A stretch of DNA of 64,000 nt from a virus: positions 244,406 to 308,405 of the IMG/VR virus record IMGVR_UViG_3300044712_002679; one strand, written 5' to 3'. Under the pieces are notes generated by a model. The model was given only the letters and a program-made list of their open reading frames with translations, did not search any database and was not told where the DNA came from. Shown piece by piece: positions 3,129-37,949 of the stretch; positions within the stretch are counted from its first letter, which is position 1, and the number at the start of each line of letters is the position of its first letter. Position numbers and translations under genes: made by a program.

Positions 3129-4168
3129 AAATAATAATAATTACTGGATCATTTGGATTAATTGGCAGTGAAGCTGTCAGTTTTTTTTCAAAAAAATTTG
3201 ATATTGTAATAGGTATTGATAACAATATGCGTGAATATTTCTTTGGAAAAGATGCTTCAGTTTTAAAAAATGAAAAATTATTGAAAGAAAAATATAATAA
3301 TTATATACATTTTAATACTGACATTAGAAATAAAATTGAATTAGAAAAAATATTTAAAGAATATAATACTGATATTAAATTGATAATACATACAGCAGCA
3401 CAACCATCGCATGATTGGGCTGTTAAAGAACCATTCACTGATTTTTCAATCAATGCAATAGGAACATTAAATTTATTAGAATTAACTAGACAATATTGTA
3501 CAAAATCTGTTTTTATTTATACTTCAACTAATAAAGTTTATGGTGATAATCCAAATTATTTACCATTAGTAGAATTACAAAATCGTTGGGAAATTGATTC
3601 AAAACATAAGTATAGTTTAAATGGTATTGACGAAACAATGTCAATAGATTATACAAAACATTCGTTGTTTGGTGTTTCTAAATTATCCGCAGATTTATTA
3701 TGCCAAGAATATGGTAAATATTTTAATATGAATGTTGGAATTTTTAGATGTGGTTGTTTAACTGGTGAAAATCATCAAGGTGTCCAATTACACGGATTTA
3801 TATCTTATTTTTTAAAATGTGCAATAAACAATCAAAAATATAATATTTATGGTTATAAAGGTAAACAAGTTAGAGACAATATACATAGTTTTGATTTAAT
3901 AACAGCATTTTGGCATTTTTATAATAATCCATTACTTGGTGAAGTTTTTAATATGGGTGGTGGTAGAAATAATAGTACATCAATATTAGAACTTATCGAA
4001 ATATTAAAAAATGATTTTAATATTAATATGAATTTTAATTATGTTGATATACCTAGAATTGGTGATCATATTTGGTATATTTCAGATTTTAATAAATTTC
4101 AATCAATTTATCCAAATTGGAAACTTACATATAATTTAAAAGATATTATAAAAAATATGATTAAATAA
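3125..4168 (+). CDS. NAD-dependent sugar epimerase/dehydratase (extended SDR)
   Basis: 'IITGSFGLIGSEAV' is a Rossmann GxxGxxG motif. 'YGVSKLSAD' is the YxxxK catalytic motif. Size is typical of GalE or CDP-sugar epimerases. Confidence 0.7.
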   Translation: MKIIIITGSFGLIGSEAVSFFSKKFDIVIGIDNNMREYFFGKDASVLKNEKLLKEKYNNYIHFNTDIRNKIELEKIFKEYNTDIKLIIHTAAQPSHDWAVKEPFTDFSINAIGTLNLLELTRQYCTKSVFIYTSTNKVYGDNPNYLPLVELQNRWEIDSKHKYSLNGIDETMSIDYTKHSLFGVSKLSADLLCQEYGKYFNMNVGIFRCGCLTGENHQGVQLHGFISYFLKCAINNQKYNIYGYKGKQVRDNIHSFDLITAFWHFYNNPLLGEVFNMGGGRNNSTSILELIEILKNDFNINMNFNYVDIPRIGDHIWYISDFNKFQSIYPNWKLTYNLKDIIKNMIK

Positions 4169-8126: not shown

Positions 8127-8132
8127 TTTAAA

Positions 8133-8447
8133 ATGATATATATAAAAAACTTTGAAAATACTGATTGGGAAACTAAGCAATATAAGAAATTTGCAATAAA
8201 GAAATTTGATCACAAATATAGAGAAGGTGATGTAGTAAAGGTATATTTACCGAATATGTGCGTAATGGGACCACAAACAATTGATGTGATTGATTATCGC
8301 ACTAACAACAAACCGTATAGAATAATTTTTAAAGGATATAAAAACAAACCTTTACCTCGACGACAAGAAATATTTTGGTTTGGTGATGATGATATTCAAT
8401 TGTGGAATGATTATCTAAAGAACATACCTAGAGATTCAGCTAAATAA
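8133..8447 (+). CDS. hypothetical small protein. N-terminus 'MIYIKNFEN' resembles the MKYIKTFE family.
   Basis: ORF with a family-like N-terminus. Confidence 0.3.
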   Translation: MIYIKNFENTDWETKQYKKFAIKKFDHKYREGDVVKVYLPNMCVMGPQTIDVIDYRTNNKPYRIIFKGYKNKPLPRRQEIFWFGDDDIQLWNDYLKNIPRDSAK

Positions 8448-8496
8448 AATTAAACTTATCTTGCATATTTTTATATAATACTAAAAAATTACATAT

Positions 8497-9303
8497 ATGT
8501 TGAAAATTATTGAATTTATTAAAAAATATTATCCATTCTTATTTTTTGTTATGATAATATTTTTATCTCTTTTTTGGTTTCAAACGTGTTCAACGCTTAA
8601 ACACGAACGAGCTGAATGGAAAGCACAACAAATTATAAATGACCAAAATGTTCATGCTATTTCTGATAGTATTATAGTTGAATTTAATAAAAAGTTAAAA
8701 GCTTGGGAATATTCCAAGGACAATTATGTTGTTCAAAGATTATCAGATTTAGAAGCTTATAACAAAGATTTAGCTAGTCAGCTTAAAAAGGTTAAAGGTG
8801 ATGTTTTAGCTGCAATAAAAACACAAGTTGAAGCTGATCTTGGTGATATAACAGCATCCAACAAATTAGCTATTTTAGATGCAAAATCTAATTATTATGG
8901 GCTAAGATTTAATACAGATTATAAAGATTTAGGTTTAGATCAAGAATTAAGTGGTATGAGTAAATTTTATGTTATTCCTGATGATAAAAATAAAAGTTGG
9001 TATATCAAACCAGATTCAACAGTCATTGATACAAATAGGGTATCAATTAGAGTGACTTATGGATTTAAAGAATTAGACAATAAGTATCAAGTTTTTGCTT
9101 TATCACAATCGCCAAAAGTAACATTAACTGATTTGACAGGTGGGTATTTTATCGACAAACAAATAACACCAATCAAAAAACCTAAAAAATGGGGTATTGG
9201 ACCTTATGCTGGATTTGGTTTAAATACTGCAGCAAATGGAAATGATCCAAGATTTGGATGGAATGTTGGTGTGGCTGTAACTTATGATATTTTTCAATGG
9301 TAA
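8497..9303 (+). CDS. hypothetical membrane-anchored protein
   Basis: N-terminal hydrophobic helix 'YPFLFFVMIIFLSLFWF'. No catalytic motif. Confidence 0.4.
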   Translation: MLKIIEFIKKYYPFLFFVMIIFLSLFWFQTCSTLKHERAEWKAQQIINDQNVHAISDSIIVEFNKKLKAWEYSKDNYVVQRLSDLEAYNKDLASQLKKVKGDVLAAIKTQVEADLGDITASNKLAILDAKSNYYGLRFNTDYKDLGLDQELSGMSKFYVIPDDKNKSWYIKPDSTVIDTNRVSIRVTYGFKELDNKYQVFALSQSPKVTLTDLTGGYFIDKQITPIKKPKKWGIGPYAGFGLNTAANGNDPRFGWNVGVAVTYDIFQW

Positions 9304-10043: not shown

Positions 10044-10161
10044 CTTTCATAACACAAATTTGGTGTTTAATCAAAAAAAGATAAAAAAAGATAAAAAAAC
10101 GTGACTTTTCACATATTTTTGTGATATATAGTAAGAAATTATTAAAAATATTACAAAAACT

Positions 10162-10629
10162 ATGCGACGAATTACAACATTTTTATTTTTTTTATTTATG
10201 ATTATTGGTCTAAATTTAAATGCACAAACAAATTTACCTATTAATTTTAAAACAACAGAACAAAGTACAACCAAACCGGATGATGATGATGGTGAATTGT
10301 ATTTTACTCGTTATTATATAGCACAACCAATAAATGTAATTTTTACAGGTTATGTTTTGAATATGTTTACTGATAAGGGGAAAATTATTTTAAAAAAGAA
10401 TGTAAAATCTTATTCAAAAATAGTTCAAAATGAAGATGGTGTTGTCGAAAAATGGATATTAAATGTATCATCAAATGATAGTTTAACAAGATATGATACT
10501 ATACAAATTATAATTGATCATAGATATAAATGGAAGCAATATCAAGTAATATTACCAACAAAAGATATTTATGGTGAAAATTATACATCATATCGTAAAT
10601 TTACTGATGAAGAATTAGCATTAAAATAA
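10162..10629 (+). CDS. secreted hypothetical protein
   Basis: Sec-type signal peptide 'MRRITTFLFFLFMIIGLNLNAQT'. Confidence 0.45.
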   Translation: MRRITTFLFFLFMIIGLNLNAQTNLPINFKTTEQSTTKPDDDDGELYFTRYYIAQPINVIFTGYVLNMFTDKGKIILKKNVKSYSKIVQNEDGVVEKWILNVSSNDSLTRYDTIQIIIDHRYKWKQYQVILPTKDIYGENYTSYRKFTDEELALK

Positions 10630-10655
10630 AAAAAGTCTCAAATTTGAGACTTTTT
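10630..10655. terminator. perfect 13-bp palindromic hairpin AAAAAGTCTCAAA/TTTGAGACTTTTT
   Basis: Begins at the first nt after the stop codon of 10162-10629. Confidence 0.55.
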
Positions 10656-10702
10656 TTATTAAAAAAATTTGCATAAAAATAATATATGATTATGTTTGTA
10701 TT

Positions 10703-11536
10703 ATGAAAAAAAATAATACAATTGAGAACATCGGTACAATATGTAACGATACTCGTAGTTCCGTAGTAAATACAATTTACTGCACTAAAGATTATTCTAT
10801 GTTTAAAACACAAACAGGGAATAGAAGTAAAAATAACAGACACATTAATGAATTGATAAAATCTATCAATTTAGAAAATTTATTACATGCTCAACCAATA
10901 TGTGTTAATGAAAAATTTGAAATTATTGATGGTCAACATCGTTTTCATGCAGCAAAAGAAATTGGAAGTAAAATTTATTATTATTTAGTAGATGGTTTAG
11001 GTATTAAACAAACTCAACGTCTCAATTCTAATTTAAAAAATTGGAATGCTGATGATTTTATGCATAGTTTTGCAGATAATGGTAACCAAGCGTATATTGC
11101 ATACAGATTATTTCATGAACAAAATTGTGATATTATTGACCACAATTTAGCACAAGTGTTATTAGGTGGGTATAATACATATAATGGTGCATATGGTCAA
11201 TTATTTAAAGATGGAAAATTTGTTGTGAAAGATTGGTCTTTAGCGGTTGACCGAATGGAAAAACTTCGTGATATTCATCATCAACTTTTGGTTATTAAAG
11301 GTATACCAGAACGAAGAGAATGTATGTATGCGTTATTAAATATATTTAAAGATGTAAATTACAATCATTCTAGAATGTTACAAAAACTTGCAATTCATCC
11401 AAAAGACATATTGCGAATTTTGCGTAGACGTAGTGATTTTCTTGTTGAATTATGTGAAATATATAATTATCGTGCGGGTAGCGAAGAAAAAAAGTCAAAT
11501 TTAAATGCTAGATTATTAATGCTAGAAAATATTTAA
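10703..11536 (+). CDS. ParB-like nuclease (ParB N-terminal domain) protein
   Basis: 'PICVNEKFEIIDGQHRFHAAKEIG' resembles the ParB/Srx 'DGHHR' motif region. Confidence 0.45.
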   Translation: MKKNNTIENIGTICNDTRSSVVNTIYCTKDYSMFKTQTGNRSKNNRHINELIKSINLENLLHAQPICVNEKFEIIDGQHRFHAAKEIGSKIYYYLVDGLGIKQTQRLNSNLKNWNADDFMHSFADNGNQAYIAYRLFHEQNCDIIDHNLAQVLLGGYNTYNGAYGQLFKDGKFVVKDWSLAVDRMEKLRDIHHQLLVIKGIPERRECMYALLNIFKDVNYNHSRMLQKLAIHPKDILRILRRRSDFLVELCEIYNYRAGSEEKKSNLNARLLMLENI

Positions 11537-15361: not shown

Positions 15362-16246
15362 ATGAACATATTAAGTTTATTTGATGGGATGTCTTGTGGA
15401 CAAATCGCATTAAATCGAGTTGGAATTAAATATGATAAATATTTTGCATCTGAAATAGATGAAAATGGAATTCAAGTAACAATGGATAATTATCCAAACA
15501 CCACACAATTAGGTGATGTTACAAAAATAATTAGTTCAAATTTACCACAAATTGATCTTTTAATTGGTGGATCACCTTGTCAAGGGTTTTCTTTTGCTGG
15601 AAAACAATTAAATTTTAATGATCCTAGAAGTGTGTTATTTTTTGAATTTGTTCGGTTGAAGAATGAATGCAAACCTAAATATTTTCTTCTAGAAAATGTT
15701 AAAATGCGAAAAGATTTCCAAGATATTATAAGCGGTTATCTTGGTGTTGAACCAATTGAAATAAATAGTTCAACAGTTTCTGCCCAAGATCGAAAAAGAT
15801 TATATTGGACAAACATTCCAAATATTACACAACCAACAAACAAAAATATTTATCTTAAAGATGTTTTAGATATTTTTGTTGATGATAGCTTATTTTTATC
15901 TGATACAATAGCATCAAGGTATTTTACTGTGCCATGCACTATAAATAAAAATAAATCATGTGTTATTGGAAAATTGTCTAATCATCAGGGTGATAGAATA
16001 TTCGATATTAATTGTAAAGGTAGTTCACTAAGTGCTAGTGGTGGCAATAATGGTGCAGGTGGTTGTAATATTATACACGACCCAACTACAAATAAATTAA
16101 GAAAATTAAGTGTATCAGAATGTGAACGTTTACAAACTGTGCCTGAAAATTATACAAAATTAGCAAAAAAGACACAACGGTATAAAATGCTTGGCAATGG
16201 TTGGACAGTTGATGTTATTTCACATATATTTAAAAATATAATTTAA
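15362..16246 (+). CDS. DNA (cytosine-5)-methyltransferase
   Basis: N-terminal 'LSLFDGMSCG' is motif I (FxGxG). 'GGSPCQGFSFAGK' is the catalytic PCQ motif IV. 'ENV' is motif VI. C-terminal 'GNGWTV' is motif X. Confidence 0.85.
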   Translation: MNILSLFDGMSCGQIALNRVGIKYDKYFASEIDENGIQVTMDNYPNTTQLGDVTKIISSNLPQIDLLIGGSPCQGFSFAGKQLNFNDPRSVLFFEFVRLKNECKPKYFLLENVKMRKDFQDIISGYLGVEPIEINSSTVSAQDRKRLYWTNIPNITQPTNKNIYLKDVLDIFVDDSLFLSDTIASRYFTVPCTINKNKSCVIGKLSNHQGDRIFDINCKGSSLSASGGNNGAGGCNIIHDPTTNKLRKLSVSECERLQTVPENYTKLAKKTQRYKMLGNGWTVDVISHIFKNII

Positions 16247-17154
16247 TGAATGTATTAAGTCTCTTTGACGGAATGTCCTGTGGACAAATCGCACTAAATA
16301 GAATTGGTATCAAATATGATAAGTATTATGCATCAGAAATTGATAAACATGCTATTAATGTAACACAAACACATTTTCCAAATACGATACAATTGGGTGA
16401 TATTACACAAATCAAAAAATTAGATTTACCACAAATAGATTTAATGATGGGTGGATCACCATGTCAAGGTTTTTCGTTTTCTGGTAAACAATTAAATTTC
16501 AATGATCCAAGAAGTAAATTATTTTTTGAATTTGTTAGATTAAAAGATGAAATTAATCCTAAATATTGGTTATTGGAAAATGTAGTAATGAAAAAAGAAT
16601 ATGAAAATATCATTTCACAATATTTGGGTGTTGAACCAATAAAAATAAATAGTAGTTTAGTATCTGCACAAAATAGAGAAAGATTATATTGGTCAAATTT
16701 AAAAATAATTCAACCAACAGACAAAAACATAAATCTTGATGATATTTTAGAATATGATGATCAAATAAATCCTGGTGCTATTCGTGGACGAAAATTAAAC
16801 AAAGCTACAATTATTGGAAGACGATTAAATGATCGTGGTGTAAGAGATGATTATAATAAAGATATTCCTATTACACAATGTTTAGAAGTAAGGGCTACTA
16901 ACACCAATAAAAGTAATTGTCTAACAACCGTTGAAAAAGATAATGTATTAACTACAATGCCTATTGGAAGACATCCTGATGCGTTTATTAATAAATTACC
17001 ATTTAGATATTATACATTAAAAGAATACTGTAGATTACAAACCGTACCTGATGATTATTTTGATGGTATAGTATCAACAAATCAAGCAAAAAAAATGATT
17101 GGTAATGGTTGGACAGTTGATGTCATTGCACACATTTTGAAAAATATTAAATAA
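16246..17154 (+). CDS. DNA (cytosine-5)-methyltransferase, tandem paralogue of 15362-16246
   Basis: Motifs I, IV, VI and X are the same. The N-terminal half is about 75% identical. The target-recognition region differs. Its ATG overlaps the upstream stop (TAATG). Confidence 0.85.
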   Translation: MNVLSLFDGMSCGQIALNRIGIKYDKYYASEIDKHAINVTQTHFPNTIQLGDITQIKKLDLPQIDLMMGGSPCQGFSFSGKQLNFNDPRSKLFFEFVRLKDEINPKYWLLENVVMKKEYENIISQYLGVEPIKINSSLVSAQNRERLYWSNLKIIQPTDKNINLDDILEYDDQINPGAIRGRKLNKATIIGRRLNDRGVRDDYNKDIPITQCLEVRATNTNKSNCLTTVEKDNVLTTMPIGRHPDAFINKLPFRYYTLKEYCRLQTVPDDYFDGIVSTNQAKKMIGNGWTVDVIAHILKNIK

Positions 17155-18475: not shown

Positions 18476-19183
18476 TTATTTTATTTTATTTTTTAATTCG
18501 TTTGGTATAATTTTTTTATTCATCCAATGTTCATCTGTTGTTACGTGACCTGGACGTACAAATTTTGCAACAGATTTACCAAAATCTTTAAAATCAAATT
18601 CATTCGCAAGTCTTATAACATAACCTTCTTGTTTTTCAGTGTCAAATGTATAATTTCTTAAAAATTGTTCATCAAATATACCTCGCCAAATAATTGGCAC
18701 ATGGCATAATCCTAATAGATTACACCAATCAACAGTATCATCCCAAGATAAACATTTATTATTTTCATCCCATATCGAAAATACTTCAAAATATGATTCC
18801 AAGTTATTGTAGTGAATACTATGTTCTGCAAATAATCCTTCACCACAAATTCTCCACCCATCAGGAATTTCGTAATTAAATGTTGACCAAAATCCTTTTA
18901 ACCAATGTCTAGAAATATGATCAACACTATCTAATGAACGAGCATATATACAATCACGCATTAGATTTGAATTTTCACCATCACGTTTTTCTGTCATAAC
19001 AATTTCTTTTCCAATGAAATGATCAATGGATTTTAATATTTTGTCATCTGATTGGCAACCTTTAGACCAAGGAAAATGGTATGTACGTGGATATTTCACT
19101 TTCATAATTGTATATTTAGTCAATACAAAGATATTAATATTTTCATTAAAAACAAATTTAGCAAAAACATTTATGCTAGTCAT
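18476..19183 (-). CDS. ATP-dependent RNA ligase-like nucleotidyltransferase
   Basis: 'KYPRTYHF' N-terminal signature, and 'EKRDGEN' as ligase motif I (KxDG). The true start may be the internal Met at 19105. Confidence 0.4.
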   Translation of the reverse strand: MTSINVFAKFVFNENINIFVLTKYTIMKVKYPRTYHFPWSKGCQSDDKILKSIDHFIGKEIVMTEKRDGENSNLMRDCIYARSLDSVDHISRHWLKGFWSTFNYEIPDGWRICGEGLFAEHSIHYNNLESYFEVFSIWDENNKCLSWDDTVDWCNLLGLCHVPIIWRGIFDEQFLRNYTFDTEKQEGYVIRLANEFDFKDFGKSVAKFVRPGHVTTDEHWMNKKIIPNELKNKIK

Positions 19184-19228
19184 AAAAAACTCATATTATT
19201 TTTTTTATATATAATTAAAAAAAATAAT

Positions 19229-20275
19229 ATGAAAAAATGTTTTTTATGTAATAAAGATTTGAAACAAAGTGAAAGTTCGCATATGAAAAAATGTGCAAAA
19301 AGTTTTAATATTGAATTTAATAAAGATTTATTAAAATATAATCAAATTCAATTTGAATATTTGGACATTTTAGATTGTTCATCTGATAATATTAACAAAT
19401 TAATAAATGAAAATGGATTAGTTTTAACTGATTTTATAAAAATATATAATTTAAAAAAATCACATTATTATTTTTTGATAAAATATCATAATATAAATAT
19501 AGATGAAAAAAAATATAAAAAAAATGTTACCGAAAATCGTAAAAAAACTACATTTGAAAAATATGGTGTTGATTCTATTAATAATGTGTTAGAAATTAAA
19601 CTTAAAAAAATGAAAACCAGTATTAAAAATTATGGTGTTGATAATCCATCAAAAAATATTGATGTGATAAATAAAATAAAAAAAACTAAAATAGATAAAT
19701 ATGATGGTTATCCAAATCCATTTAAAAATAAATCTGAAGATGAAATAAAGAAAATAATGAATTTTTGTCATCAAGGATTTAAAAATATGTATAATAATTT
19801 ATCTGAACAAGATAAGAAAATAATGATTGATAATTTACATATTGGTAGAAAAAAATGGTGGAATTCGTTATCGGAAGATGAAAAACATCAAATAATAAAT
19901 AATAGAACAAGTTTTAAGATGTCTAAAATAGAAAAAAGAATACTTGATATTTTAGACTATATGCAAATAAAATATATTTATCAATTTTGGGTTAATCGTT
20001 TATCATATGATTTTAAAATATTAAATACAAATGTCATAATTGAAGTAAATGGTGATTATTGGCACGCAAATCCCATACTATATCATAAAGATCAAATTAT
20101 TAAGTATCCTAATAATGTAAAAATAACAGCATCAGAAATATGGTATAAAGATTTTTTAAAAAAAGAAGTAGCATTAAAATATGGTTATAAGATATTATAT
20201 ATTTGGGAAAATGATATGAAAACATATTCAGATGTCGATTTAATTAATATTATTAATAATCAATTAATTCTTTGA
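19229..20275 (+). CDS. Zn-finger protein with a C-terminal Vsr-like / DUF559-type PD-(D/E)xK endonuclease domain
   Basis: The start is reassigned to 19229, because the 19052 start overlaps the divergent gene. 'EVNGDYWHANP...ALKYGYKILYIWEND' parallels Vsr 'VDGCFWH...GWRVLIVWE'. The N-terminus has 'CFLCNKD...HMKKC'. Confidence 0.5.
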   Translation: MKKCFLCNKDLKQSESSHMKKCAKSFNIEFNKDLLKYNQIQFEYLDILDCSSDNINKLINENGLVLTDFIKIYNLKKSHYYFLIKYHNINIDEKKYKKNVTENRKKTTFEKYGVDSINNVLEIKLKKMKTSIKNYGVDNPSKNIDVINKIKKTKIDKYDGYPNPFKNKSEDEIKKIMNFCHQGFKNMYNNLSEQDKKIMIDNLHIGRKKWWNSLSEDEKHQIINNRTSFKMSKIEKRILDILDYMQIKYIYQFWVNRLSYDFKILNTNVIIEVNGDYWHANPILYHKDQIIKYPNNVKITASEIWYKDFLKKEVALKYGYKILYIWENDMKTYSDVDLINIINNQLIL

Positions 20276-20748
20276 TTCATTTATTCTTTTTAATTTCATT
20301 TTTCTTAGAAATCTATTGAAATCAATAGTTAAATCTGTTACAGTTGAACCATTATCAATTCTTGTGAGGTTTTAGTACTTAAATTATAATATATTGCGAT
20401 TTGAAAATTTATAACAATTTCTATATTTTCATTTTTATAGGCAATAAATTTATCAATCTGTTTATTTTTAATTTCAATTTTTGTTTCAATAAATTGTAGA
20501 ATAATTTCACTTAGTTGTTCTTCATCTTTAGATAGTTGCATTTTCTAATTCTTCAATTAATTTTTTTAATTCAGCCAATCCAATTGTCATTCGTTCTGAT
20601 CCTCTGCCACCATAACCATAATCCCAACAACATTCTATTTCAACTTCATCTTTTTTTATAGTGATATTGAATGTACCATCTTCAATATTTATTTCATTAT
20701 TGAAAGTTGGTTCCCAATCTAAATATTTATTAATTATCATCATATTCT

Positions 20749-21267
20749 TTATAATTGAAATGGTTTATCCAAGCCAGAATTTCTTAGGCTTTCCCAAGCT
20801 TCATTAATTTTATTTTCATAGTTAAAAATATTATCTAAGTAATCCCACATATCTTTATATTCTTCTGAATATAGTTCTTTTTTAAAATGATTGTGTTCTT
20901 TTTTGTACATTTCAAACATTCTATGTTTAGAATTAAGACTATGTTCAATATTTGCTATTCTATCACACAATTTAACAAAAGTTGCATATTTGGTATTTCT
21001 AATCCCTTCATAATATTTGTGGTTTGCTCGTTCTGCTCTTGTTTTACCCTTTTCATTGGTACAAGCATAAGCAAGTTCAGCAATCGTCTTCTATGGAATC
21101 ATGTTCCCATATACCACCCACAACATTTAGTCTATCTAGTTCTGGTATAAGATAAATAAATTTCCATCCGTTATTTACTGCACCAGTTAAATGATATTCA
21201 TATGGAAGATTATCACCATATTTGTGATTTACTGCATTATGAACCCTATTGTCTTTGTTTTTTTCAT
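20749..21267 (-). pseudogene. HD-domain phosphohydrolase, disrupted by two frameshifts
   Basis: Stitching three frames gives 'MKKNKDNRVHNAVNHKYGD...GGIWEHDSIEDD|TIAELAYACTNEKGKTRAERANHKYYEG...'. The H...HD...D motifs are present. Shifts lie near 21245 (an A7 run) and near 21090. Confidence 0.5.
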
Positions 21268-21287
21268 ATGTTAAAAATAGATATTTT

Positions 21288-21545
21288 TTATTTATAATTC
21301 AAACGAAACGTATTTATTTTATCTAATTTACGTTTTCGTTCATATCTAATTAACAAATGATGTTTTTCTAACTTTAATTGATTAATCAATTCCCACAATT
21401 TTGCAGAATCACATCTAATAGATAGACCATAAATAGAATTCATTTCAAGTTTACATACTTCCAATTGCAAATCAATATTAAATATTTTTTCTTCAAAATC
21501 ATTTAAATATGATTTTTTTTCATCAAAAGTAAGTGTATCTGACAT
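21288..21545 (-). CDS. hypothetical protein
   Basis: ORF only. Confidence 0.25.
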   Translation of the reverse strand: MSDTLTFDEKKSYLNDFEEKIFNIDLQLEVCKLEMNSIYGLSIRCDSAKLWELINQLKLEKHHLLIRYERKRKLDKINTFRLNYK

Positions 21546-21867
21546 TATTTATTTTTTTTAGTTTTATATCACGAATGTGTCTCAAATAAATTTTTTCAAA
21601 TTCTGAAATATCATACTGTTTTCCTTTATATTTTATGCAAAATCGTATAAATAATATTGATAAGTCTTCTAATGTCGATATATTTTCAAATTCTGCAAAA
21701 TTATCAGGAAAAATATTATTATTTAAATCAGTAATTATGTTGTTTATTGTATCATTTCGTAAAGAATTACCAACATATTTGCTACAAACATCAGATGTAA
21801 TATCAGATAATGTTTTTAACATATAATTTTTATTTTCGTTCATTTTAATTAATTCAAATTCCAACAA
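21523..21867 (-). CDS. hypothetical protein
   Basis: ORF only. Confidence 0.3.
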   Translation of the reverse strand: MLEFELIKMNENKNYMLKTLSDITSDVCSKYVGNSLRNDTINNIITDLNNNIFPDNFAEFENISTLEDLSILFIRFCIKYKGKQYDISEFEKIYLRHIRDIKLKKINNVRYTYF

Positions 21868-22205
21868 AAATCAGTTAAAAACTTATGATCTTCAGGATAG
21901 TTAGAAATATAAAGTTTCACAAACGTTGAAAATTCACTAACGGATAATGTATAATCAACATGATTTAATTTGGCACAATTTAAAAAATCATTATAATCAT
22001 CATCCCGCAAATAGCCCTTTAATGGTATGATTTTACCAACACAACTAGACCAATGTAATTCTTTACCTGTCCAGGTTATCCAATACCAATCTTCATCATC
22101 AGTACCAATTGCAACTAACCTTTCAATAGTATGACTCATTGTAATGATGAATTGTCCTTTTAGTTGTTCGAATTCTTCTAATATCAATTTTAAATTATTA
22201 TCCAT
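21849..22205 (-). CDS. hypothetical protein
   Basis: ORF only. Confidence 0.3.
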   Translation of the reverse strand: MDNNLKLILEEFEQLKGQFIITMSHTIERLVAIGTDDEDWYWITWTGKELHWSSCVGKIIPLKGYLRDDDYNDFLNCAKLNHVDYTLSVSEFSTFVKLYISNYPEDHKFLTDFCWNLN

Positions 22206-22217
22206 AAAATTAAAAAA

Positions 22218-22625
22218 TTAAATATACCACAAAAAATAAATTGTTAAAAATAGTGTAATATAATGTATCAATTGATCAAATCCAATTGTTACAAAATATT
22301 TATGTCGTTTATTTTTCAACAAATGTTTATTAACAACTAATGTAACAAATAAATCAGTCAATAAATGACTAATATATGTAATAATAAAAAACCATAAAAT
22401 ATTAATATAATGAATGAATGGTAATAAATTGAAAATTTGCAAAATTAATAATAATCCCGTTAAAATTCCACTATATATTAAAGTGTGTGGATAAATATGT
22501 TTTAAATATCGTTTTATTTTATGATAAATATTATTTGTTCTATTTATTTTATGGTTGTTTTGTTGTGTTACAAAATCACCAACATAATGCCCTACTAATA
22601 TAGCTATAATAATATATAAATTCAT
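22218..22625 (-). CDS. polytopic membrane protein (DUF3307-like, 'HYVGDFVTQ')
   Basis: Four hydrophobic helices. The His/Asp motif lies in the first helix. Confidence 0.35.
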   Translation of the reverse strand: MNLYIIIAILVGHYVGDFVTQQNNHKINRTNNIYHKIKRYLKHIYPHTLIYSGILTGLLLILQIFNLLPFIHYINILWFFIITYISHLLTDLFVTLVVNKHLLKNKRHKYFVTIGFDQLIHYITLFLTIYFLWYI

Positions 22626-22633
22626 TTTTATTT

Positions 22634-22888
22634 TTATTTTTTAATTGGAACAACACGCCAAAGATCACTACAAGATTTACATATCGAAATAGATTTATTG
22701 TTGTCAGTTTTGTGATACAAACATACACTAGAATCCATTAATGTCCCACAACAATCACATTCATACATATTTTCAATTTTAGTTTCACCCCAAGACATTG
22801 TTCCTGCATAAAGAAATTTAAATTCATAATATTGTCTAAGTTCGTAAATCTTTTTTACAACATTATTTTCTTTCCAATCTTTTTTCAT
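22634..22888 (-). CDS. Cys-rich zinc-ribbon protein
   Basis: 'CDCCGTLMDSSVCLYH...CKSCSDL'. Confidence 0.35.
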   Translation of the reverse strand: MKKDWKENNVVKKIYELRQYYEFKFLYAGTMSWGETKIENMYECDCCGTLMDSSVCLYHKTDNNKSISICKSCSDLWRVVPIKK

Positions 22889-23246
22889 TTATTATATCCA
22901 TTATTTTTTTATAAATGTCTGAGCTATTATAAATAGAATCACTACTAAATGATCCATATTTCTTTTGATTATATGATTTTTTCAAATCTAACCAACATTC
23001 TTTTATATTAATTATACCATTAAGTAAAACAGATATTGGAAACATTATTGTATTTAATATTATCGCTAATGGATTATAAAAATTATGAAGTATAATTTGT
23101 TTATCATTATAATAATATTCATATCTATCAATCCATTTTATTTGTCTATGTTTAAATAATTGATTATGTACTTTTTTGGATAATTTGAATTTTTTATATC
23201 CATTATCCAAAGGGTTTTTATAAATATATTCAGTTTTAATCATCAT
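22863..23246 (-). CDS. hypothetical membrane-associated protein
   Basis: ORF with an internal hydrophobic segment. Confidence 0.3.
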   Translation of the reverse strand: MMIKTEYIYKNPLDNGYKKFKLSKKVHNQLFKHRQIKWIDRYEYYYNDKQIILHNFYNPLAIILNTIMFPISVLLNGIINIKECWLDLKKSYNQKKYGSFSSDSIYNSSDIYKKIMDIINEKRLERK

Positions 23247-23650
23247 AATAATTTTAAATGTCCTGTTATGGGGTTTATTTCTTCGGATTTAGCTGGACCG
23301 ATAGCAACACAAGTTTTTGTTGGTACACCATTAAATTCAGTTAATCCGGCATCGACAATCAATGAACAAGGCAAACCTTTATCTTTTGCTTGTTGATATA
23401 TATCCAATAGTTCTTGTTCACTATCACAACTAACAACAACCTTAGTAAATAACCCCCTTAACCATACTGACCAATTAGAATCATCATCTAAATAAAAAGT
23501 AAGATGACCTTCACTTGATGATATTCTTTGATATTCACACAAATCTAAAAATACTTTCATTGAGGCGTGGGCCGCCTGAGACATCGCCTTACCCTTACGA
23601 ACATTTAAGTCTTTTCGGAATATTATAACTTGTTTTACATTTTCATTCAT
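23243..23650 (-). CDS. pth2: peptidyl-tRNA hydrolase, PTH2 (archaeal/eukaryotic) type
   Basis: 'KQVIIFRKDLNVRKGKAMSQAAHAS...VAIGPA' aligns well with the Pth2 family. Size is 135 aa. Confidence 0.8.
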   Translation of the reverse strand: MNENVKQVIIFRKDLNVRKGKAMSQAAHASMKVFLDLCEYQRISSSEGHLTFYLDDDSNWSVWLRGLFTKVVVSCDSEQELLDIYQQAKDKGLPCSLIVDAGLTEFNGVPTKTCVAIGPAKSEEINPITGHLKLL

Positions 23651-23899
23651 TTAATTCTTTTTTAATTCTTTATCTCGTTCAGCACATTCTTTACACTGTG
23701 TCACACATCCACCATCTGGTATATTTGGTCGCCATATTTCATAGCAATTGAATTTTTTCTTTTTTATAGGTAATTTTATGATTATTCCAATCATTGGAAG
23801 TGGTAAAAAATAAATCCAATTTTTATTCTTATCGTAAAAGAATCCGATCCATAAATCGTACCATTTAAATATAAATTGTATTTTCATCAAAATCTCCAT
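23651..23899 (-). CDS. hypothetical small protein
   Basis: ORF with a Cys cluster 'CVTQCKECAE'. Confidence 0.25.
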   Translation of the reverse strand: MEILMKIQFIFKWYDLWIGFFYDKNKNWIYFLPLPMIGIIIKLPIKKKKFNCYEIWRPNIPDGGCVTQCKECAERDKELKKN

Positions 23900-24140
23900 T
23901 TTTTGTTTCTATAAGTTCCTTTGCTCTTTCAAATATTGTTGAATCATCCAATAAAACTACACCACCATTTGGACCGGATTCCATATGTATTCCTACACTT
24001 GTTCCATTTTGATAATTTGCACCACCAAAATAATTTCTGATTGTGTCTTCTGTTAAATTAAATTCTGTAGATAGTTTCTTTATTGATCCTTTCGGTAGAC
24101 TATCTTTAACTTTTCTTAATTCATTAAATGTAATTACCAT
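23865..24140 (-). CDS. hypothetical small protein
   Basis: ORF only. Confidence 0.25.
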   Translation of the reverse strand: MVITFNELRKVKDSLPKGSIKKLSTEFNLTEDTIRNYFGGANYQNGTSVGIHMESGPNGGVVLLDDSTIFERAKELIETKNGDFDENTIYI

Positions 24141-24202
24141 ATATGTATATTTTTTTTAAAGTTGTTTTAATTTTTTATAATCTACAAATTATTGTAAATT
24201 AT

Positions 24203-24559
24203 TTACCAAAATAAATCATCATTATTTTTCAAATTTAATTGTTCAATAGGATTTTCGAGATATACTACAGGTTTATTGGTGCTTATAGCATATTCTATTT
24301 CATTTTTTGTGGATGTTCCAATATAACCACCAACATTTATAACGAATATTTCATCAGCTAAATCTATTTTTCGTTTGTGCATATTGTCTAACATTTCTTT
24401 AGTGTTATCAGTAAATACTTCAACATCACCAGAATGACCAAATAACCCAACACTTATTACAATATTACCTTCTAAGGTAAGTCTTTTTTGCTCAGCTATA
24501 AATTGATCTTTAAATTTTGTACTTCCACATAATGTTACAATTTTAAAATTTTCTATCAT
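24203..24559 (-). CDS. Rossmann-like SLOG/LOG-family-like protein
   Basis: 'VGGYIGTSTKNEIEYA' resembles the LOG 'PGGxGTxxE' motif. N-terminal 'LCGSTKF' resembles 'FGSS'. Confidence 0.25.
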   Translation of the reverse strand: MIENFKIVTLCGSTKFKDQFIAEQKRLTLEGNIVISVGLFGHSGDVEVFTDNTKEMLDNMHKRKIDLADEIFVINVGGYIGTSTKNEIEYAISTNKPVVYLENPIEQLNLKNNDDLFW

Positions 24560-24701
24560 TTTTTAATATTATTTTTATTCCCAACTTCAACTACGATTCT
24601 ATTAGGATTAATTTTTTCATCTTCTGTTACTGGAATCCAAACATCATTTTGGGTTATATTCTTGAATTTATTAAATCCAAAAAATGTCAATATTTTATCA
24701 A

Positions 24702-24965
24702 TCATACATTTATATTATTTTTATGAAATATTTGATCAAAATTCAAATATTTATTTGCAGATATTATAAGATCATCTTTTAACATATTTTTTATATTATT
24801 TATATCAATAAATCTATTTTCTTTATCATATAAATATGTATTATAAAATGGTTTATTATCAATAATTGTCGAATATCTTATCATCGTTTTTGAACAATAT
24901 GGTGAATAATATTGTGTAATTTCATCATATTGAATTTCTGGGTATCTTTTTAAAATACCTATCAT
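24702..24965 (-). CDS. hypothetical protein
   Basis: ORF whose start overlaps the gmd stop (ATGA). Followed by a further ATGA-coupled 48-aa ORF at 24563-24705. Confidence 0.3.
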   Translation of the reverse strand: MIGILKRYPEIQYDEITQYYSPYCSKTMIRYSTIIDNKPFYNTYLYDKENRFIDINNIKNMLKDDLIISANKYLNFDQIFHKNNINV

Positions 24966-25993
24966 TAAGTTCCAATTAAACTTTTTCCACCAGTTTTTAA
25001 ATCGTGTTCCATCATAATCTTAACCAATTCTTTAAACTTCACCTTTGGTTCCCATCCTAAAATTGTACGAGCTTTTGTTGAATCACCAAGTAACAGATCT
25101 ACTTCAGATGGTCTAAAATATTTTGGATCAATTTCAATTACAACATTACCTGTATTCTTATCTATACCTTTTTCATCTACCCCACTTCCAACCCATTCGA
25201 TATCCATGTTAACATATTTACAAGCTTCTTCGATGAAATCTTTGACACTATACATTATCCCAGTAGAAAGTACAAAATCTTCTGGGGTGTCTTGTTGTAA
25301 CATTAACCACATACCATACACATAATCGGGAGAATATCCCCAATCTCTTTTTGAATATAAATTGCCTAATTTTAAAGTTTTTTGTTTTCCGTTTTTTATT
25401 TTTACTAATGCTTCAGTTACTTTCTTTGAAACAAAAGTAGACCCCCGACGTTCTGATTCATGATTAAACAATATTCCATTACTTATAAACATATCATATG
25501 ATTCTCTATAATTTTTACAAATATGGTAGGCGTAAAGTTTTGCCACACCATAAGGAGACTGTGGGTTAAATTGTGTTTTTTCAGTTTGTGGTATTTCTAA
25601 AACCTTTCCATATAATTCACTCGTACTAGCATTATAAATTTTAGATTTTAATTCCAATAAACGACAACTTTCGAGTACATTTAGGACACCTATTGCATCA
25701 ACTTGTGCAGTATATAATGGTTGTGTAAATGACACTTGAACGTGACTTTGTGCAGACAGAATATATATTTCATCAGGTTTAACTTTTAATAATATATTTT
25801 GAATAGACGATATATCAGTGATATCACCATAATATAAATGTATTTTATCATAAATATTTTCAAGTCTACCAGTGTTAAATGAACTACTTCTTCTAATCAT
25901 CCCATGTACATCATAATCTTTATCTAACAGTAATTCAGCAAGATAACTTCCATCTTGACCTGTAATTCCTAACAATAATGCTTTTTTCTTCAT
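24965..25993 (-). CDS. gmd: GDP-mannose 4,6-dehydratase
   Basis: '[42 protein letters not shown]' is nearly diagnostic for GMD. Full length is 342 aa. Confidence 0.9.
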
Positions 25994-26054: not shown

Positions 26055-26705
26055 TTAATATCCCTGATATAATTTCACGGAATCTTCGACCAAACTTTTA
26101 CCATCAATAATAGATTTGTCTATCATTCTGTTAATTGCTTGCACGTATTTCGGTCTTTTTTGTTTAAAACAAATATCTATTTTACGTTTTAGTGATGCTA
26201 ATTCTTCATCAGATGTTGCTAATCCACATGCATCCTCCAAATACCACATACGGCAATTTAATATTGCTAATTTTTCTATAACTTCACCAATATTATCAGT
26301 TTCAATTATATCATTTGGCATTTCTATATATTTAGATTTATTTAAAATGTTGTGAACTGTAGTTTTAATTATATCTTCAATTTTTTCACCAATATTTAAT
26401 TCATTATTTAAATATTGATGATAATCTTGTTCACCACCATCACCAACAATATTTTCAAATGATATAACATCTTTATCATCATATTCATAATCATTGAACC
26501 AATCACCAACAGAATCTTCTATATGTTTACAAAAATCGCCTACTGAATCATCATTATTTTCTTTTGGATTCGAATTATATTCATAATCATTGAACCAATC
26601 AAAATCTTCTTCCACCATACCAATATTTACGTTTCCGATTTTATAATTTATGTTCCAATTGCCACTTTCTCTGACACCACAATGTCCATTAATTTGATTT
26701 TCCAT
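26055..26705 (-). CDS. hypothetical protein with an internal 'DWFNDYEY' duplication
   Basis: ORF with a repeated acidic segment. Confidence 0.3.
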   Translation of the reverse strand: MENQINGHCGVRESGNWNINYKIGNVNIGMVEEDFDWFNDYEYNSNPKENNDDSVGDFCKHIEDSVGDWFNDYEYDDKDVISFENIVGDGGEQDYHQYLNNELNIGEKIEDIIKTTVHNILNKSKYIEMPNDIIETDNIGEVIEKLAILNCRMWYLEDACGLATSDEELASLKRKIDICFKQKRPKYVQAINRMIDKSIIDGKSLVEDSVKLYQGY

Positions 26706-27862: not shown

Positions 27863-30457
27863 TTACATATTTTTATTTACGATATCACATATATACATAA
27901 TATCCATACCTGTTAAATCTGGGTTATTAGGTACATATAGACCATACTTATCTACAATATCAGCAAAATCAAATGATTGTTTACCATATTTTTTTATCCA
28001 ATATGGTTGGTTTCCAATTGATCCACAGACTAATGGTCTACAATCAACACCACCATCATCTAATGCTTTTGCAATTTGTTTAATATTCGGATGAATTATA
28101 GGATATGCAAAATTTGCGATTTTACAATGTTCAAAATCTTTAATCTTCCAATAATCATTTTTGATAAATTCTTGATATAATTCATAATTCCATTGTCTAA
28201 ATATACAATTTTTTTCAATTCTGTCCAATTGATGTATTCCAATAAATGCTTGCAAATCAGTTGATCTTAAATTGAATCCTGGATAATAAAATGTATATAA
28301 ATCTTTAAAGTCATCAACATCAAATCCTTCTTTTAATTTTGATTTAAAAGGTTCATCTAAATCACGATCCCAACCATGTGCTCTTATACTTTTAAGAATA
28401 CAATACAAATCATAATCATCAGTACAGACCATCCCACCTTCTATTGTTGAATTATGTAAACATATAGGTTGCCAACCACCAACAAAATTTTCTGTATTTG
28501 GAACACAAAAATCATAAACATATTCATCATTACTATTTATTGTTTCTTTTGATCTAACACACAATAACATTAAATCATTATCGACGAATTTTTTTAATTT
28601 ATCATTATTTAAATATTCAGACTTAAACAATTTAATAAAATCACAACATTTATATGATACGTTATTTTTATTTCTTTTGGAAAATCTTTCAATTTTAAAT
28701 GTTAATTTTTTGTATGGTAATGTATTTTTTATATCAGAAACGATTATTGAATTATCTGATATTTCTACATTAGATATAATGAATTTATATTGTATTTTAT
28801 TATTTGTTTTTCTACCACATATCATTCTATTATTTTCTTTAGATTCAATAATAGAACCATTTAATCCTAACATATTAAATAAATATGAAATTTCATTTAT
28901 TAAATTTTTTGATACACTTGATACCGAAATTCTATTATCATCTACATTTGTGCCATCGCCAGCAAAATAACCATATAAAAATGATGATATATTTTCGTAA
29001 TTTGAATGAAATATAAATTTTGGTATTTGTTTATTTGATGCTCCAGATTTTATATTCAAAAAATCTCTAAAAAATATTAATAAAGTTTCAGATGATATGC
29101 AAATTGCATGGCTATGTTTATCTTCAACAATATCATCATATGATTCTAAATTAAATATTTTTTTTATAATATTTTTTACATCCTTAATATATTCAATTTC
29201 ATTTATATTAAATGAAAAACATAATCCACTTTTTTTGTATGATCCTTCGGCTAAAAAATAACCAATCAATCGACATAAATCTTCTGAAACTTCATATTTA
29301 ATTGGAATATATTTATATTTAGGTGTGTTTTTTTTAGCAATTTTTAAATTATCAGTTTCTGTTATCAAATATTCCAAGGGTAAAACCTTTCTTCTTTTCC
29401 AATTATCTTTGTTTTTATTATCTTTACTATTCCATTTGAACTTTATTTTATCTAAATCAGATTCGTTATGGTTTATTGTAAAATATGTATTTTCAGTTTT
29501 TTTACAAAAATCTAAAAAATTTAATTCTGTTATGGGGTTTGGTTGTGGAATTTTAGATGGTACTACAATATAATCACCAATATTAATATCATTTCCTTTT
29601 TTTGGTATAATGTTAAAATTTTTTGGATCATAAGAAAAAACACTATGATCTTCGGTAATTTCAACATATCTACCATTTGATAATTTTATTTTAAAAACTA
29701 TTTTGTTGTTTAGTTCGTGTTTTATTATATTTGAAGGTGATTTATATTGTGTATTATAATCATCATCGAATGTTATTATTTTTATTTTATTTACATCATA
29801 TTGATATTTATTATAGATATTTTTAATATTATCTATATTAAAAATATCATTTTCATCTAAATATGGTATTGGTGTATTAGATGACACTGACATATGATGA
29901 CCATAATAAAAGGAAAAAGAACTCATTAGACCAAATGATCCTGTTTTAATATCATTATAAAAAGAACCAATACTTTCACATGAATCTTCTAATAAAATAA
30001 TGTTATTTTGTTCACATATTTCTAAAATTTCTTTCATTTTATTAGGAAATCCTAATACGTGAACTAACATTATAACAGAAGGTTTGTGTTCTTTCACAAG
30101 TTTTTTTAGGTGATCAATATCTAATCCTAATGTTTCTTTATCACATTCACAAAGAATTGGATTAAGCCCCAATTGAATAATTGGTGAAACTGTTGTAGTC
30201 CATGACACCGCAGGAACGATTATATTTTTATTTATTAGTCTATCAGACATCAATAAACTATAAATCATTGCTAGATTTGCAGATGAACCAGAATTAAGAA
30301 AAACTGAATATTTTTTATTTTGATATTTAGAATATTTTTCTTCAAATTCTACAGTAAGCTTATTTTTAGTTAAAATAGGATTCGTTTTTAACCATTCTAT
30401 TAAAAGGTTTATATCATTTGCGTCAATTGTGTCTTTAACTAATTTAATTCGTTCCAT
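27863..30457 (-). CDS. DegT/ColD-type PLP-dependent sugar 3-dehydratase/aminotransferase, interrupted by an intein that encodes a LAGLIDADG homing endonuclease
   Basis: N-extein has the DegT fold ('...GSFGLMSSFSFYYGHHM'). C-extein is 'STIEGGMVCTDD...RAHGWDRD...GFNLRSTDLQAFIGIHQL'. The intein has block B 'EITEDHSVFS', two LAGLIDADG motifs ('LIGYFLAEGSY', 'LYGYFAGDGTN'), block G 'VYDFCVPNTENFVGGWQPICLHN' and Ser at +1. The conserved PLP lysine position reads His (verified on the DNA), as in ColD and E1 dehydratases. Confidence 0.75.
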   Translation of the reverse strand: MERIKLVKDTIDANDINLLIEWLKTNPILTKNKLTVEFEEKYSKYQNKKYSVFLNSGSSANLAMIYSLLMSDRLINKNIIVPAVSWTTTVSPIIQLGLNPILCECDKETLGLDIDHLKKLVKEHKPSVIMLVHVLGFPNKMKEILEICEQNNIILLEDSCESIGSFYNDIKTGSFGLMSSFSFYYGHHMSVSSNTPIPYLDENDIFNIDNIKNIYNKYQYDVNKIKIITFDDDYNTQYKSPSNIIKHELNNKIVFKIKLSNGRYVEITEDHSVFSYDPKNFNIIPKKGNDINIGDYIVVPSKIPQPNPITELNFLDFCKKTENTYFTINHNESDLDKIKFKWNSKDNKNKDNWKRRKVLPLEYLITETDNLKIAKKNTPKYKYIPIKYEVSEDLCRLIGYFLAEGSYKKSGLCFSFNINEIEYIKDVKNIIKKIFNLESYDDIVEDKHSHAICISSETLLIFFRDFLNIKSGASNKQIPKFIFHSNYENISSFLYGYFAGDGTNVDDNRISVSSVSKNLINEISYLFNMLGLNGSIIESKENNRMICGRKTNNKIQYKFIISNVEISDNSIIVSDIKNTLPYKKLTFKIERFSKRNKNNVSYKCCDFIKLFKSEYLNNDKLKKFVDNDLMLLCVRSKETINSNDEYVYDFCVPNTENFVGGWQPICLHNSTIEGGMVCTDDYDLYCILKSIRAHGWDRDLDEPFKSKLKEGFDVDDFKDLYTFYYPGFNLRSTDLQAFIGIHQLDRIEKNCIFRQWNYELYQEFIKNDYWKIKDFEHCKIANFAYPIIHPNIKQIAKALDDGGVDCRPLVCGSIGNQPYWIKKYGKQSFDFADIVDKYGLYVPNNPDLTGMDIMYICDIVNKNM

Positions 30458-31717: not shown

Positions 31718-32563
31718 TTAAAATAACATTGGTTTTATATTAGATATTTTTAATAATTCCATAGTTGTATCATTAAATAAGTCTTCATATAAAATTTTTC
31801 TAGATTTTAAATAAAATATTTTTTCGTTTGATGTTATATTTTCCGATATATCTTCGGTTACATAATCTTCATATTTTAAATTAAAATGTGAATATAAACT
31901 TCTGATAAAATCATTTACAAATATCAATCGACCTGATCCAATAATTTCATCTTGTCTAGCTTTTATAGATTGTTCAACGACAAATTTTGGATGTAATAGT
32001 TCTCTATAAAAATATGTATTACCAATTGTAATTTGTTTTTGATTTATAATCGAATCAAAAATTTTAGAAAATAAAAAACCATCTTTTCGATATATTGAAT
32101 TAAAATTAAATGGATGTAGAACTATTACATTATTATATATTCTATGGATATCTGATATCAACATATCTTTTGATTCTACATAATTTGAAAGTTTATAATT
32201 GAATGGCGTATAAATATTTATTGGACCATCACAATTATTCCACAATTCACTAGTACCATATATTATAACATTATTAGATATTGGACTAAAATAATCAATA
32301 ACTTTAAGTGTATAATCGACATTAGTTTTAAAAAATATTTCCCAATTATCTGTTATATAAGTTCGTTGTTCAGCAAAACAAATATAAACACGATTATAAT
32401 GTTTTTTATATTTTTCAAAATCTATATTTCGTGATGATATTTTTTCATAGTCATCAGGAAAATAGTGTGCCAATTGTGATGTGTTTCCAATTACTAGATT
32501 CATTTTAATTTGTTTATTTCCTTTATTTTTTCTGATCTTAGTTTCCTCGATAAAAATGGACAA
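31718..32563 (-). CDS. RmlD-like 4-keto-6-deoxy-sugar reductase (divergent SDR)
   Basis: 'LVIGNTSQLAHYF' vs RmlD 'TGANGQLG'. 'SNYVESKDM' is YxxxK. Size is about 280 aa. Likely start at the internal 'MNLVIG'. Confidence 0.3.
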   Translation of the reverse strand: MSIFIEETKIRKNKGNKQIKMNLVIGNTSQLAHYFPDDYEKISSRNIDFEKYKKHYNRVYICFAEQRTYITDNWEIFFKTNVDYTLKVIDYFSPISNNVIIYGTSELWNNCDGPINIYTPFNYKLSNYVESKDMLISDIHRIYNNVIVLHPFNFNSIYRKDGFLFSKIFDSIINQKQITIGNTYFYRELLHPKFVVEQSIKARQDEIIGSGRLIFVNDFIRSLYSHFNLKYEDYVTEDISENITSNEKIFYLKSRKILYEDLFNDTTMELLKISNIKPMLF

Positions 32564-37418: not shown

Positions 37419-37949
37419 ATGAGAAAATTTATTATAGTTATTATATTTTTACTAATATATGCTGTTCAAGCTGCTAATATAAGCCATTCTGATAGCATTA
37501 GAATTGAATTGGTAGATTCTATCAGCAATCAATTAGATGTTAGGGAAACTTCTTATAATAGGGGTAAAATGGTTGATATTTATAATAAAGAAGTAGGTGT
37601 CCCATTAGGTTCTTCTTGGTGTGGGTCTTTTGTTGGTTCAAATTTAACTTGGCAAGGTGTTGAAAACCCAAATTCTGCATGGTCACCAAATTACGCTACA
37701 AAAGATATTATTTGGAAAGCAAAAAGAAAAAATAATATAACACCAAAATCTGGTGATGTTGTAACTTTCTATTATTCAAATCTTGGTCGTGTGGGACATA
37801 CAGGTTTTTATGTAAAAACAGATAATAATGGTTTTTTTATTACAATAGAAGGTAATACGAATAATGGTGGGTCACGTGAAGGTGATGGTGTATATAAGAA
37901 AAAACGTGATCCAAATAAAGTATACGCAATTAGTAGATATATTAAATAA
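37419..37949 (+). CDS. secreted CHAP-domain (Cys/His) amidase/peptidase
   Basis: Signal peptide 'MRKFIIVIIFLLIYAVQA'. 'GSSWCGSFV' is the catalytic Cys and 'GRVGHTGFYV' the catalytic His. Motif order and spacing are typical of CHAP/NlpC-P60. Confidence 0.55.
   Translation: MRKFIIVIIFLLIYAVQAANISHSDSIRIELVDSISNQLDVRETSYNRGKMVDIYNKEVGVPLGSSWCGSFVGSNLTWQGVENPNSAWSPNYATKDIIWKAKRKNNITPKSGDVVTFYYSNLGRVGHTGFYVKTDNNGFFITIEGNTNNGGSREGDGVYKKKRDPNKVYAISRYIK

Follow-up and report, generated by a model that had tools for sequence, protein, structure and literature searches.

The DNA analysed here is a window of 64,000 nt, covering positions 244,406 to 308,405 of the IMG/VR virus record IMGVR_UViG_3300044712_002679. 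The open reading frame (ORF) at positions 27863 to 30457 of this window very probably encodes a ColD-like PMP/PLP sugar 3-dehydratase that is split by an intein two residues after His187, the residue at the position of the Schiff-base lysine. The domain anatomy, the exact junctions, the conservation of catalytic residues and the presence/absence polymorphism of the insert were established, together with the predicted folds. An earlier, sequence-only reading of the same DNA had proposed a LAGLIDADG-containing intein at the active site of a ColD-type enzyme, and its claims are compared with the results below.

Precursor and splice junctions

Homologues of the precursor were sought in 5.8 billion proteins, and 44 full-length members carrying an insert at the same site were aligned. 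Coordinates of the precursor and its parts are given in Table 1. Pfam recognised DegT_DnrJ_EryC1 in two pieces of the precursor (1.7e-54), and Intein_splicing (6.4e-17), LAGLIDADG_3 (3.8e-11) and Hom_end (1.5e-5) within the insert. The N-terminal block of the Hint domain was detected with the NCBIfam model intein_Nterm TIGR01445 at 38 bits, above the cut-off of 24.5; profile positions 2-82 correspond to residues 191-274, which places profile position 1 on Ser190. On the DNA and its translation, the junctions read ...SFSFYYGHHM189 / S190VSSNTPIPY...PICLHN669 / S670TIEGG.... Because intein-free homologues (e.g. P0028, P0047 and L001) read FY[FY]GHH[ML]STIEGG across this site, the insert runs exactly from Ser190 to Asn669 and its first residue is Ser.

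The split between SFSFYYGHHM and STIEGG, as previously proposed, was therefore recovered both from the junctions on the DNA and from the intein-free homologues. Serine as the first intein residue likewise agreed with the profile register and with 44 of 44 same-site homologues. Blocks B and G, the two LAGLIDADG motifs, the terminal His-Asn and Ser at +1 are all present as reported, together with blocks A and F. The estimate of about 475 aa for the intein was slightly short: the intein comprises 480 aa, and the joined exteins 384 aa. Insertion at the active site was correct as regards the PLP (pyridoxal 5'-phosphate)-binding segment, but the insert lies two residues past the catalytic histidine and not on it.

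Intein class and conserved residues

Ser190, His247, Thr268, His271, Glu404, Lys476, Asp501, Asp649, His668 and Asn669 are invariant in the 44 same-site members. The NX motif, a His following Arg or Lys upstream of block B, is a signature of Ser1/Ser+1(Thr+1) inteins and proved essential in three of these (Pasch et al. 2023, PMC10189870). Its His is present in 44/44 homologues and is preceded by K or R in 42/44; in the query it corresponds to Lys246-His247, which aligns with the R-H of PI-PkoII and MjaTFIIB. Ser1/Ser+1 inteins constitute a recognised minority class that includes Psp Pol-1, PI-TkoII and MjaTFIIB (PMC10189870), and Ser1 is thus uncommon, yet not anomalous. The +1 residue is Ser670 in the query and Thr in the RfbH-like host clade described below. 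Since Ser1, TxxH, the block F Asp, His-Asn, Ser+1 and the NX motif are all present, the element is a standard class 1 intein, predicted to use oxyester chemistry. By sequence, PI-PkoII (2cw7, 4e-21), the MjaTFIIB mini-intein and VMA inteins are its nearest relatives of known structure.

It is hardly credible that the insert is a degenerate Hint-like sequence unable to splice, which would make the gene a pseudogene or the source of an inactive two-lobed protein. The frame is open across 2.6 kb, the N-terminal block exceeds the curated TIGR01445 cut-off, and the splicing residues are all retained in the 44 homologues and in 13 loci from metagenome-assembled genomes (MAGs), with zero stop codons within the intein. 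Judged from these features, the insert is a real and probably active intein.

Host enzyme

Pfam, the alignment to ColD and a Foldseek comparison agree on a DegT/DnrJ (aspartate-aminotransferase type I) fold for the host, as the sequence-only reading had stated for DegT/DnrJ. The spliced 384-aa extein matched E. coli ColD/WbdK (2gms) at E 5e-64 over residues 26 to 376. Once the insert is removed, this alignment is contiguous and free of gaps across the junction ('yyghhmstiegg' against 'FYSHHIATMEGG'; in the wider alignment, 'fglmssfsfyyghhmstieggmvctdd' against 'FGLMGTFSSFYSHHIATMEGGCIVTDD' of ColD). The ColD mutant chains H188K (2r0t) and H188N (3b8x) mark the first of the two histidines as His188 of ColD, and His187 of the query is therefore its equivalent. 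The ColD hallmark claimed earlier, His at the Schiff-base Lys position, is thus present and is invariant in the 44 homologues. A standard aminotransferase is ruled out by His, not Lys, at this position.

The ColD type named in the earlier reading also stood when the extein was compared with related families, with E values of 2e-37 to the E1 dehydrase (CDP-6-deoxy-L-threo-D-glycero-4-hexulose 3-dehydrase) and 1.5e-33 to perosamine synthase, the best aminotransferase. It is improbable that the host is instead a sugar aminotransferase or a CDP-sugar dehydrase of E1/RfbH type, and not a ColD-type GDP-sugar 3-dehydratase. Such an identity would accord with the best NCBIfam model, RfbH, which scored 179.6 bits and so fell far under its cut-off of 423, with the JGI automatic name on close homologues ('CDP-6-deoxy-D-xylo-4-hexulose-3-dehydrase'), and with a CDP-tyvelose-2-epimerase-like gene in the same window. 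The order of the E values speaks against it, as do the mature length, which fits ColD (390 aa) and not E1 (437 aa), and the adjacent gene for GDP-mannose 4,6-dehydratase (GMD), which makes the ColD substrate. The GMD gene shares the strand of the dehydratase gene and is 1.9 kb downstream of it, and the related loci L001, L019 and L020 likewise pair the dehydratase with a GMD-type (GDP_Man_Dehyd-family) gene. This neighbourhood supports a putative GDP-sugar 3-deoxygenation pathway for the ColD-type enzyme.

Predicted structure

The full precursor was modelled with AlphaFold2 using the 44-sequence alignment as input. The mean predicted local distance difference test score (pLDDT) was 89, and values below 50 occurred only at residues 185-188, 577-579 and 670-672, the first and last of which are the two splice junctions. 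When compared with the PDB by Foldseek, the insert matched PI-PkoII (2cw7) best (1.5e-28), with the TliVMA, PhoVMA and PI-PfuI inteins ranking after it; matches to 2cw7, 7qss and 1dq3 place it in the Hint fold. ColD came next, with a TM score of 0.87 (normalised to ColD length). Because the ColD alignment spans both extein halves and the whole query, the halves are already ColD-like in the model, and together they are predicted to take a ColD-like fold around an intein looped out of the active-site loop.

Empty and occupied alleles

The IMG/VR contig L001 is syntenic with the query locus and carries an intein-free dehydratase allele of 83% identity. The two loci share the 257/281-aa gene upstream and the small gene downstream, after which L001 continues with GMER-like, GMD and MetK genes. 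Its empty site (…GGTCATCATTTA/TCAACAATAGAAGGTGG…), which includes TTCGGTCATCATTTATCAACAATAGAAGGTGGTATG, matches the spliced site of the query gene at 48 of 60 nt. The best 120 extein homologues are all intein-free, the closest being 88-91% identical. The insertion point is the same in every occupied allele, and empty alleles are 83-91% identical. The extein closest to that of the query lacks an intein, and the same holds for P0001, P0002 and P0004, so occupied and empty alleles are interleaved; this fits ongoing homing, in which the element would still be gained and lost.

Proposed mechanism

While the insert parts His187 from the STIEGG segment, the precursor would have no cofactor site. Splicing is expected to begin with an N-O acyl shift at Met189-Ser190, aided by Thr268 and His271 of block B and by Lys246-His247. 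The ester would then pass to Ser670, Asn669 would cyclise with the help of His668, and an O-N shift would end the reaction, yielding the 384-aa mature enzyme and a free intein. The LAGLIDADG endonuclease (Glu404, Asp501) may cut intein-free alleles at the conserved ...GGTCATCATnnn/TCAACAATAGAAGGTGG..., with repair copying the intein in (homing). Acting with the neighbouring GMD, the spliced enzyme would remove the C3 hydroxyl of a GDP-sugar, toward a 3,6-dideoxyhexose for a glycan.

Several points weigh against the interpretation of the locus as a splicing, mobile intein in a ColD-type enzyme. Splicing, DNA cleavage and enzyme activity are themselves inferred. In other Ser1 inteins a Glu partner of the NX Arg/Lys has been described; none is evident here, where Lys occupies the aligned position. 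The ColD-type assignment is well supported by the sequence comparisons with two caveats: the position of ColD Ser187 is occupied by Gly186 in the host ('YYGHH' against 'FYSHH' in ColD), and no ColC/GMER-like gene stands next to the dehydratase gene in the window, although the syntenic L001 has one. On both counts the final sugar is uncertain. The composition of the intein also bears no sign of recent arrival, with a GC content at third codon positions (GC3) of 9.8% compared with 13.3% in the host; a GC3 as low as that of the host points to long residence of the intein in AT-rich genomes.

The same compositional match would suit an intein that splices while its endonuclease no longer homes, that is, a fixed and vertically inherited passenger late in the homing cycle, as would the poor conservation of the stretch following the endonuclease core (28% identity within the clade). 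This alternative is nevertheless unlikely, given that the acidic residues of the LAGLIDADG motifs and Lys476 are invariant in 44/44 homologues, that the endonuclease core is conserved to the same degree as the Hint blocks (59% against 54-59%), and that empty and occupied alleles interleave among close relatives. A homing-competent endonuclease within a splicing intein is the reading retained.

Distribution across host clades and carriers

The precursor itself was absent from the 5.8 billion proteins, where its best match had 73% identity, and about 50 DegT proteins carried a homologous intein at the identical position. They fall into a ColD-like host clade (GHH[ML]/S[VC]…CLHN/ST[IM]EGG, Ser at +1) and an RfbH/E1-like host clade (AH[QH]M/SCS…FLHN/TMGEGG, Thr at +1). 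Carriers of the ColD-like form are virus-like contigs and one Pacearchaeota MAG.

GTDB species representatives were scanned with an intein-only alignment, which gave 13 loci, all with a reading frame open through the intein. The insert was at the same site in all 12 loci that retain both junctions, and the remaining locus (L031), cut at the contig start, had the same C-terminal junction. The host was ColD-like in the Pacearchaeota MAG and RfbH-like in Saganbacteria (2), Roizmanbacteria (3), Paceibacterota, Moraniibacteriota, Patescibacteria, Elusimicrobia, two 'bacterium' MAGs and Micrarchaeota; these taxon labels are those of MAG bins, which may hold viral contigs. One RfbH-type copy lies on a 455-kb contig inside a typical bacterial polysaccharide operon, and the ColD-type copies sit among many orphan ORFs. 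Among 1.8 billion cluster representatives only seven clusters represented the same-site allele, after which the score fell from 225 to 192 bits; the next relatives were inteins in T2SSE/PilB-type ATPases (192 bits, 29% identity). In tblastn against phages, only intein-free homologues of less than 40% identity were found.

Between the two clades the inteins (35%) resemble each other more than the exteins do (29%). Inside the ColD clade, by comparison, conservation is lower for the intein than for the extein (47% against 51%). This pattern suggests, short of proof, transfer between paralogues. It is tentatively proposed that one allele may have moved between the ColD-like and RfbH/E1-like families by means of the H-[HQ]-M/[ST]-x-x-E-G-G site common to both and now resides in virus-like genomes, bacteria of the CPR (candidate phyla radiation) and archaea of the DPANN group, with viruses as the likely carriers; this scenario is possible, and held with less than even confidence.

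The IMG/VR contig L003 encodes a ColD-like and an RfbH/E1-like His-type dehydratase (8001..9164 and 10106..11407) about 1 kb apart, both intein-free, so both paralogous target sites can coexist in one viral genome. Separately, inteins were seen at two or more other sites in the DegT-family dehydratase homologues P0040, P0061, P0067, P0068, P0074 and P0078, and the family accordingly has at least three intein insertion sites. The intein of P0040 is at the conserved Asp158-x-Cys160 motif with Cys at +1, and a further site falls near residues 219-236 in the numbering of the spliced protein. The GMD of locus L018 (5820..8036; GCA_043955465.1, JBINOF010003220.1), encoded 1.2 kb downstream of P0002, a ColD homologue with the intein, is 738 aa long, and its catalytic motif is interrupted by a separate insert containing LAGLIDADG (GILFNHE/TLADFTPMIF...GHVHN/SPRRG); the first residue of this insert is apparently Thr, which is unusual for an intein N-terminus.

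Genome context

The window is very AT-rich (23.9% GC) and contains no tRNAs. It had no megablast match among the INPHARED phages, a search of IMG/VR for one exact 34-mer of the intein gave no hit, and a comparison of ten large ORFs with PHROGs gave no match for nine and only homing-endonuclease families for the tenth. The packed small ORFs, the CHAP-domain protein and the syntenic IMG/VR contigs argue for a large phage, and the window is interpreted as belonging to a large uncultivated virus that is probably a phage and carries an island of glycan-biosynthesis genes; the CHAP domain hints at a virus of bacteria. An origin from a giant eukaryotic virus was considered and dropped, as the Mimivirus-type early promoter motif AAAATTGA was not enriched (29 observed, 34 expected) and tRNAs were absent.

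Sugar-related genes of the window encode glycosyltransferases of families GT2, GT4 and GT11, GMD, a CDP-tyvelose-2-epimerase-like protein, a SIS/GmhA-like protein and a cytidylyltransferase, and a NUDIX protein and an RNA ligase are also encoded (selected features in Table 1). Besides the intein, the genome holds several predicted selfish endonucleases. In the 216-aa ORF downstream of the dehydratase gene, the N-terminal half includes an acidic 'DSVGD(W)F..DYEY'-like segment in repeated form, which is lacking in the L001 and L003 homologues.

Table 1. Positions of the intein-containing dehydratase gene, its parts and other features in the 64,000-nt window
Feature	Position	Strand	Remarks
Precursor ORF (N-extein, intein, C-extein)	27863..30457	-	864 aa plus stop; single uninterrupted frame
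N-extein	29891..30457	-	Residues 1-189, ending ...SFSFYYGHHM
Host His187	29897..29899	-	Counterpart of ColD His188 (His for Schiff-base Lys); invariant in 44 homologues
Intein	28451..29890	-	Residues 190-669, 480 aa; Hint splicing domain with inserted LAGLIDADG endonuclease
Block A	29867..29890	-	SVSSNTPI; Ser190 is intein residue 1, N-terminal nucleophile
NX motif	29717..29722	-	Lys246-His247; [K/R]-His, specific to Ser1 inteins
Block B	29633..29674	-	GRYVEITEDHSVFS; Thr268 and His271 form TxxH
LAGLIDADG motif 1	29240..29269	-	LIGYFLAEGS; Glu404 invariant
Lys476	29030..29032	-	Invariant; upstream of LAGLIDADG motif 2
LAGLIDADG motif 2	28949..28981	-	FLYGYFAGDGT; Asp501 invariant
Block F	28475..28522	-	YVYDFCVPNTENFVGG; Asp649 invariant
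Block G and +1 residue	28448..28468	-	PICLHN (His668, Asn669) and Ser670 (+1 nucleophile)
C-extein	27863..28450	-	Residues 670-864 (STIEGG...) plus stop
GMD	24965..25993	-	3e-122 to 7kf3; intein-free
216-aa ORF	26055..26705	-	C-terminal half matches a small conserved gene after (L001, 114 aa) or before (L003, 117 aa) ColD
SDR (short-chain dehydrogenase/reductase)-like ORF	31718..32563		281 aa; candidate reductase; no PDB sequence match
GT2 glycosyltransferase–radical SAM/SPASM fusion	61..2208	+	715 aa
GT11 (fucosyltransferase-family) gene	2211..3128		Beside the GT2 fusion
CDP-tyvelose-2-epimerase-like SDR	3125..4168		5.6e-40 to 9rl0
C-5 cytosine DNA methyltransferases	15362..16246, 16246..17154	+	Two adjacent genes (2e-45, 8e-41)
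Homing-endonuclease-like gene	19052..20275	+	Free-standing; PHROG homing/HNH endonuclease matches and DUF7487
Small ORFs, about 16	20338..24965	-	50-135 aa, none of 150 aa or more; head-to-tail, often overlapping; phage-like layout
CHAP-domain protein	37419..37949	+	Peptidoglycan hydrolase-like
Vault-type protein	40166..42607	+	813 aa; major-vault-protein shoulder, Vault_3 repeat, SPFH/Band 7; unusual for a virus-like genome
Cation-efflux (CDF) transporter	43121..43999		After the 813-aa vault-type protein
SIS_2 protein	46891..47469	+	GmhA-like sugar isomerase
Homing-endonuclease-like gene	56374..57318	+	Free-standing; NUMOD1 domain
Macro-domain protein	61678..62277	-

Relation to known systems and significance

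The intein most closely resembles PI-PkoII/PI-TkoII (Thermococcus kodakarensis Pol-2, 2cw7) and Psp-GBD Pol-1. Like it, these are class 1 maxi-inteins of the Ser1 kind, encode a double-motif LAGLIDADG endonuclease, and have an R/K-His NX motif and a block F of 'ENF' form. They differ in their hosts, which are family B DNA polymerases from hyperthermophilic archaea, and are only about 20-30% identical to the query. The nearest non-DegT relatives among the cluster representatives, the T2SSE/PilB-type ATPase inteins of uncultivated prokaryotes, likewise have another host protein. On the host side, ColD of E. coli O55 (WbdK, GDP-4-keto-6-deoxy-D-mannose 3-dehydratase; 2gms, 3b8x, 2r0t, 3gr9) is alike in the His at the Lys position, in fold and in having GMD nearby, but has no intein and has Ser187 where the query has Gly.

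Replication, repair and ATPase proteins are the hosts of most inteins described. Methanocaldococcus jannaschii UDP-glucose dehydrogenase, a nucleotide-sugar enzyme, carries an intein (InBase), in another host fold and at another insertion site. UDPG_MGDP_dh (P0095) and PGM_PMM (P0082) proteins with distantly related inteins were among the matches here (59-86 bits). The literature yielded no description of a 3-dehydratase or other DegT-family enzyme that carries an intein, InBase and paper supplements being only partly searchable, and the Novikova 2015 survey of inteins has nothing relevant in its main text. JGI automatic annotation tags some homologues 'transaminase/intein/homing endonuclease'. 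In anatomy the element is an ordinary Ser1 LAGLIDADG maxi-intein; its novelty lies in the host protein, in the site of insertion and in how broad its range of carriers is.

There is a practical risk in annotation, as such genes are easily mis-called over-long aminotransferases; the Saganbacteria copies are named only 'DegT/DnrJ/EryC1/StrS family aminotransferase' at NCBI. The family of at least 44 Ser1/Ser+1(Thr+1) inteins with an NX histidine is relevant to splicing tools for oxidising conditions, and a natural Ser1/Ser+1 maxi-intein of this kind could supply inteins that splice without cysteine. Splicing might also act as a post-translational gate on glycan-precursor synthesis, which is speculative. 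Occupation of one site in two paralogous families, in viruses, bacteria and archaea, offers a compact system for the crossing of gene-family and domain boundaries by an endonuclease, and an intein placed in the catalytic loop of an enzyme that deoxygenates sugars with the aid of a cofactor extends the intein host range to viral glycan biosynthesis.

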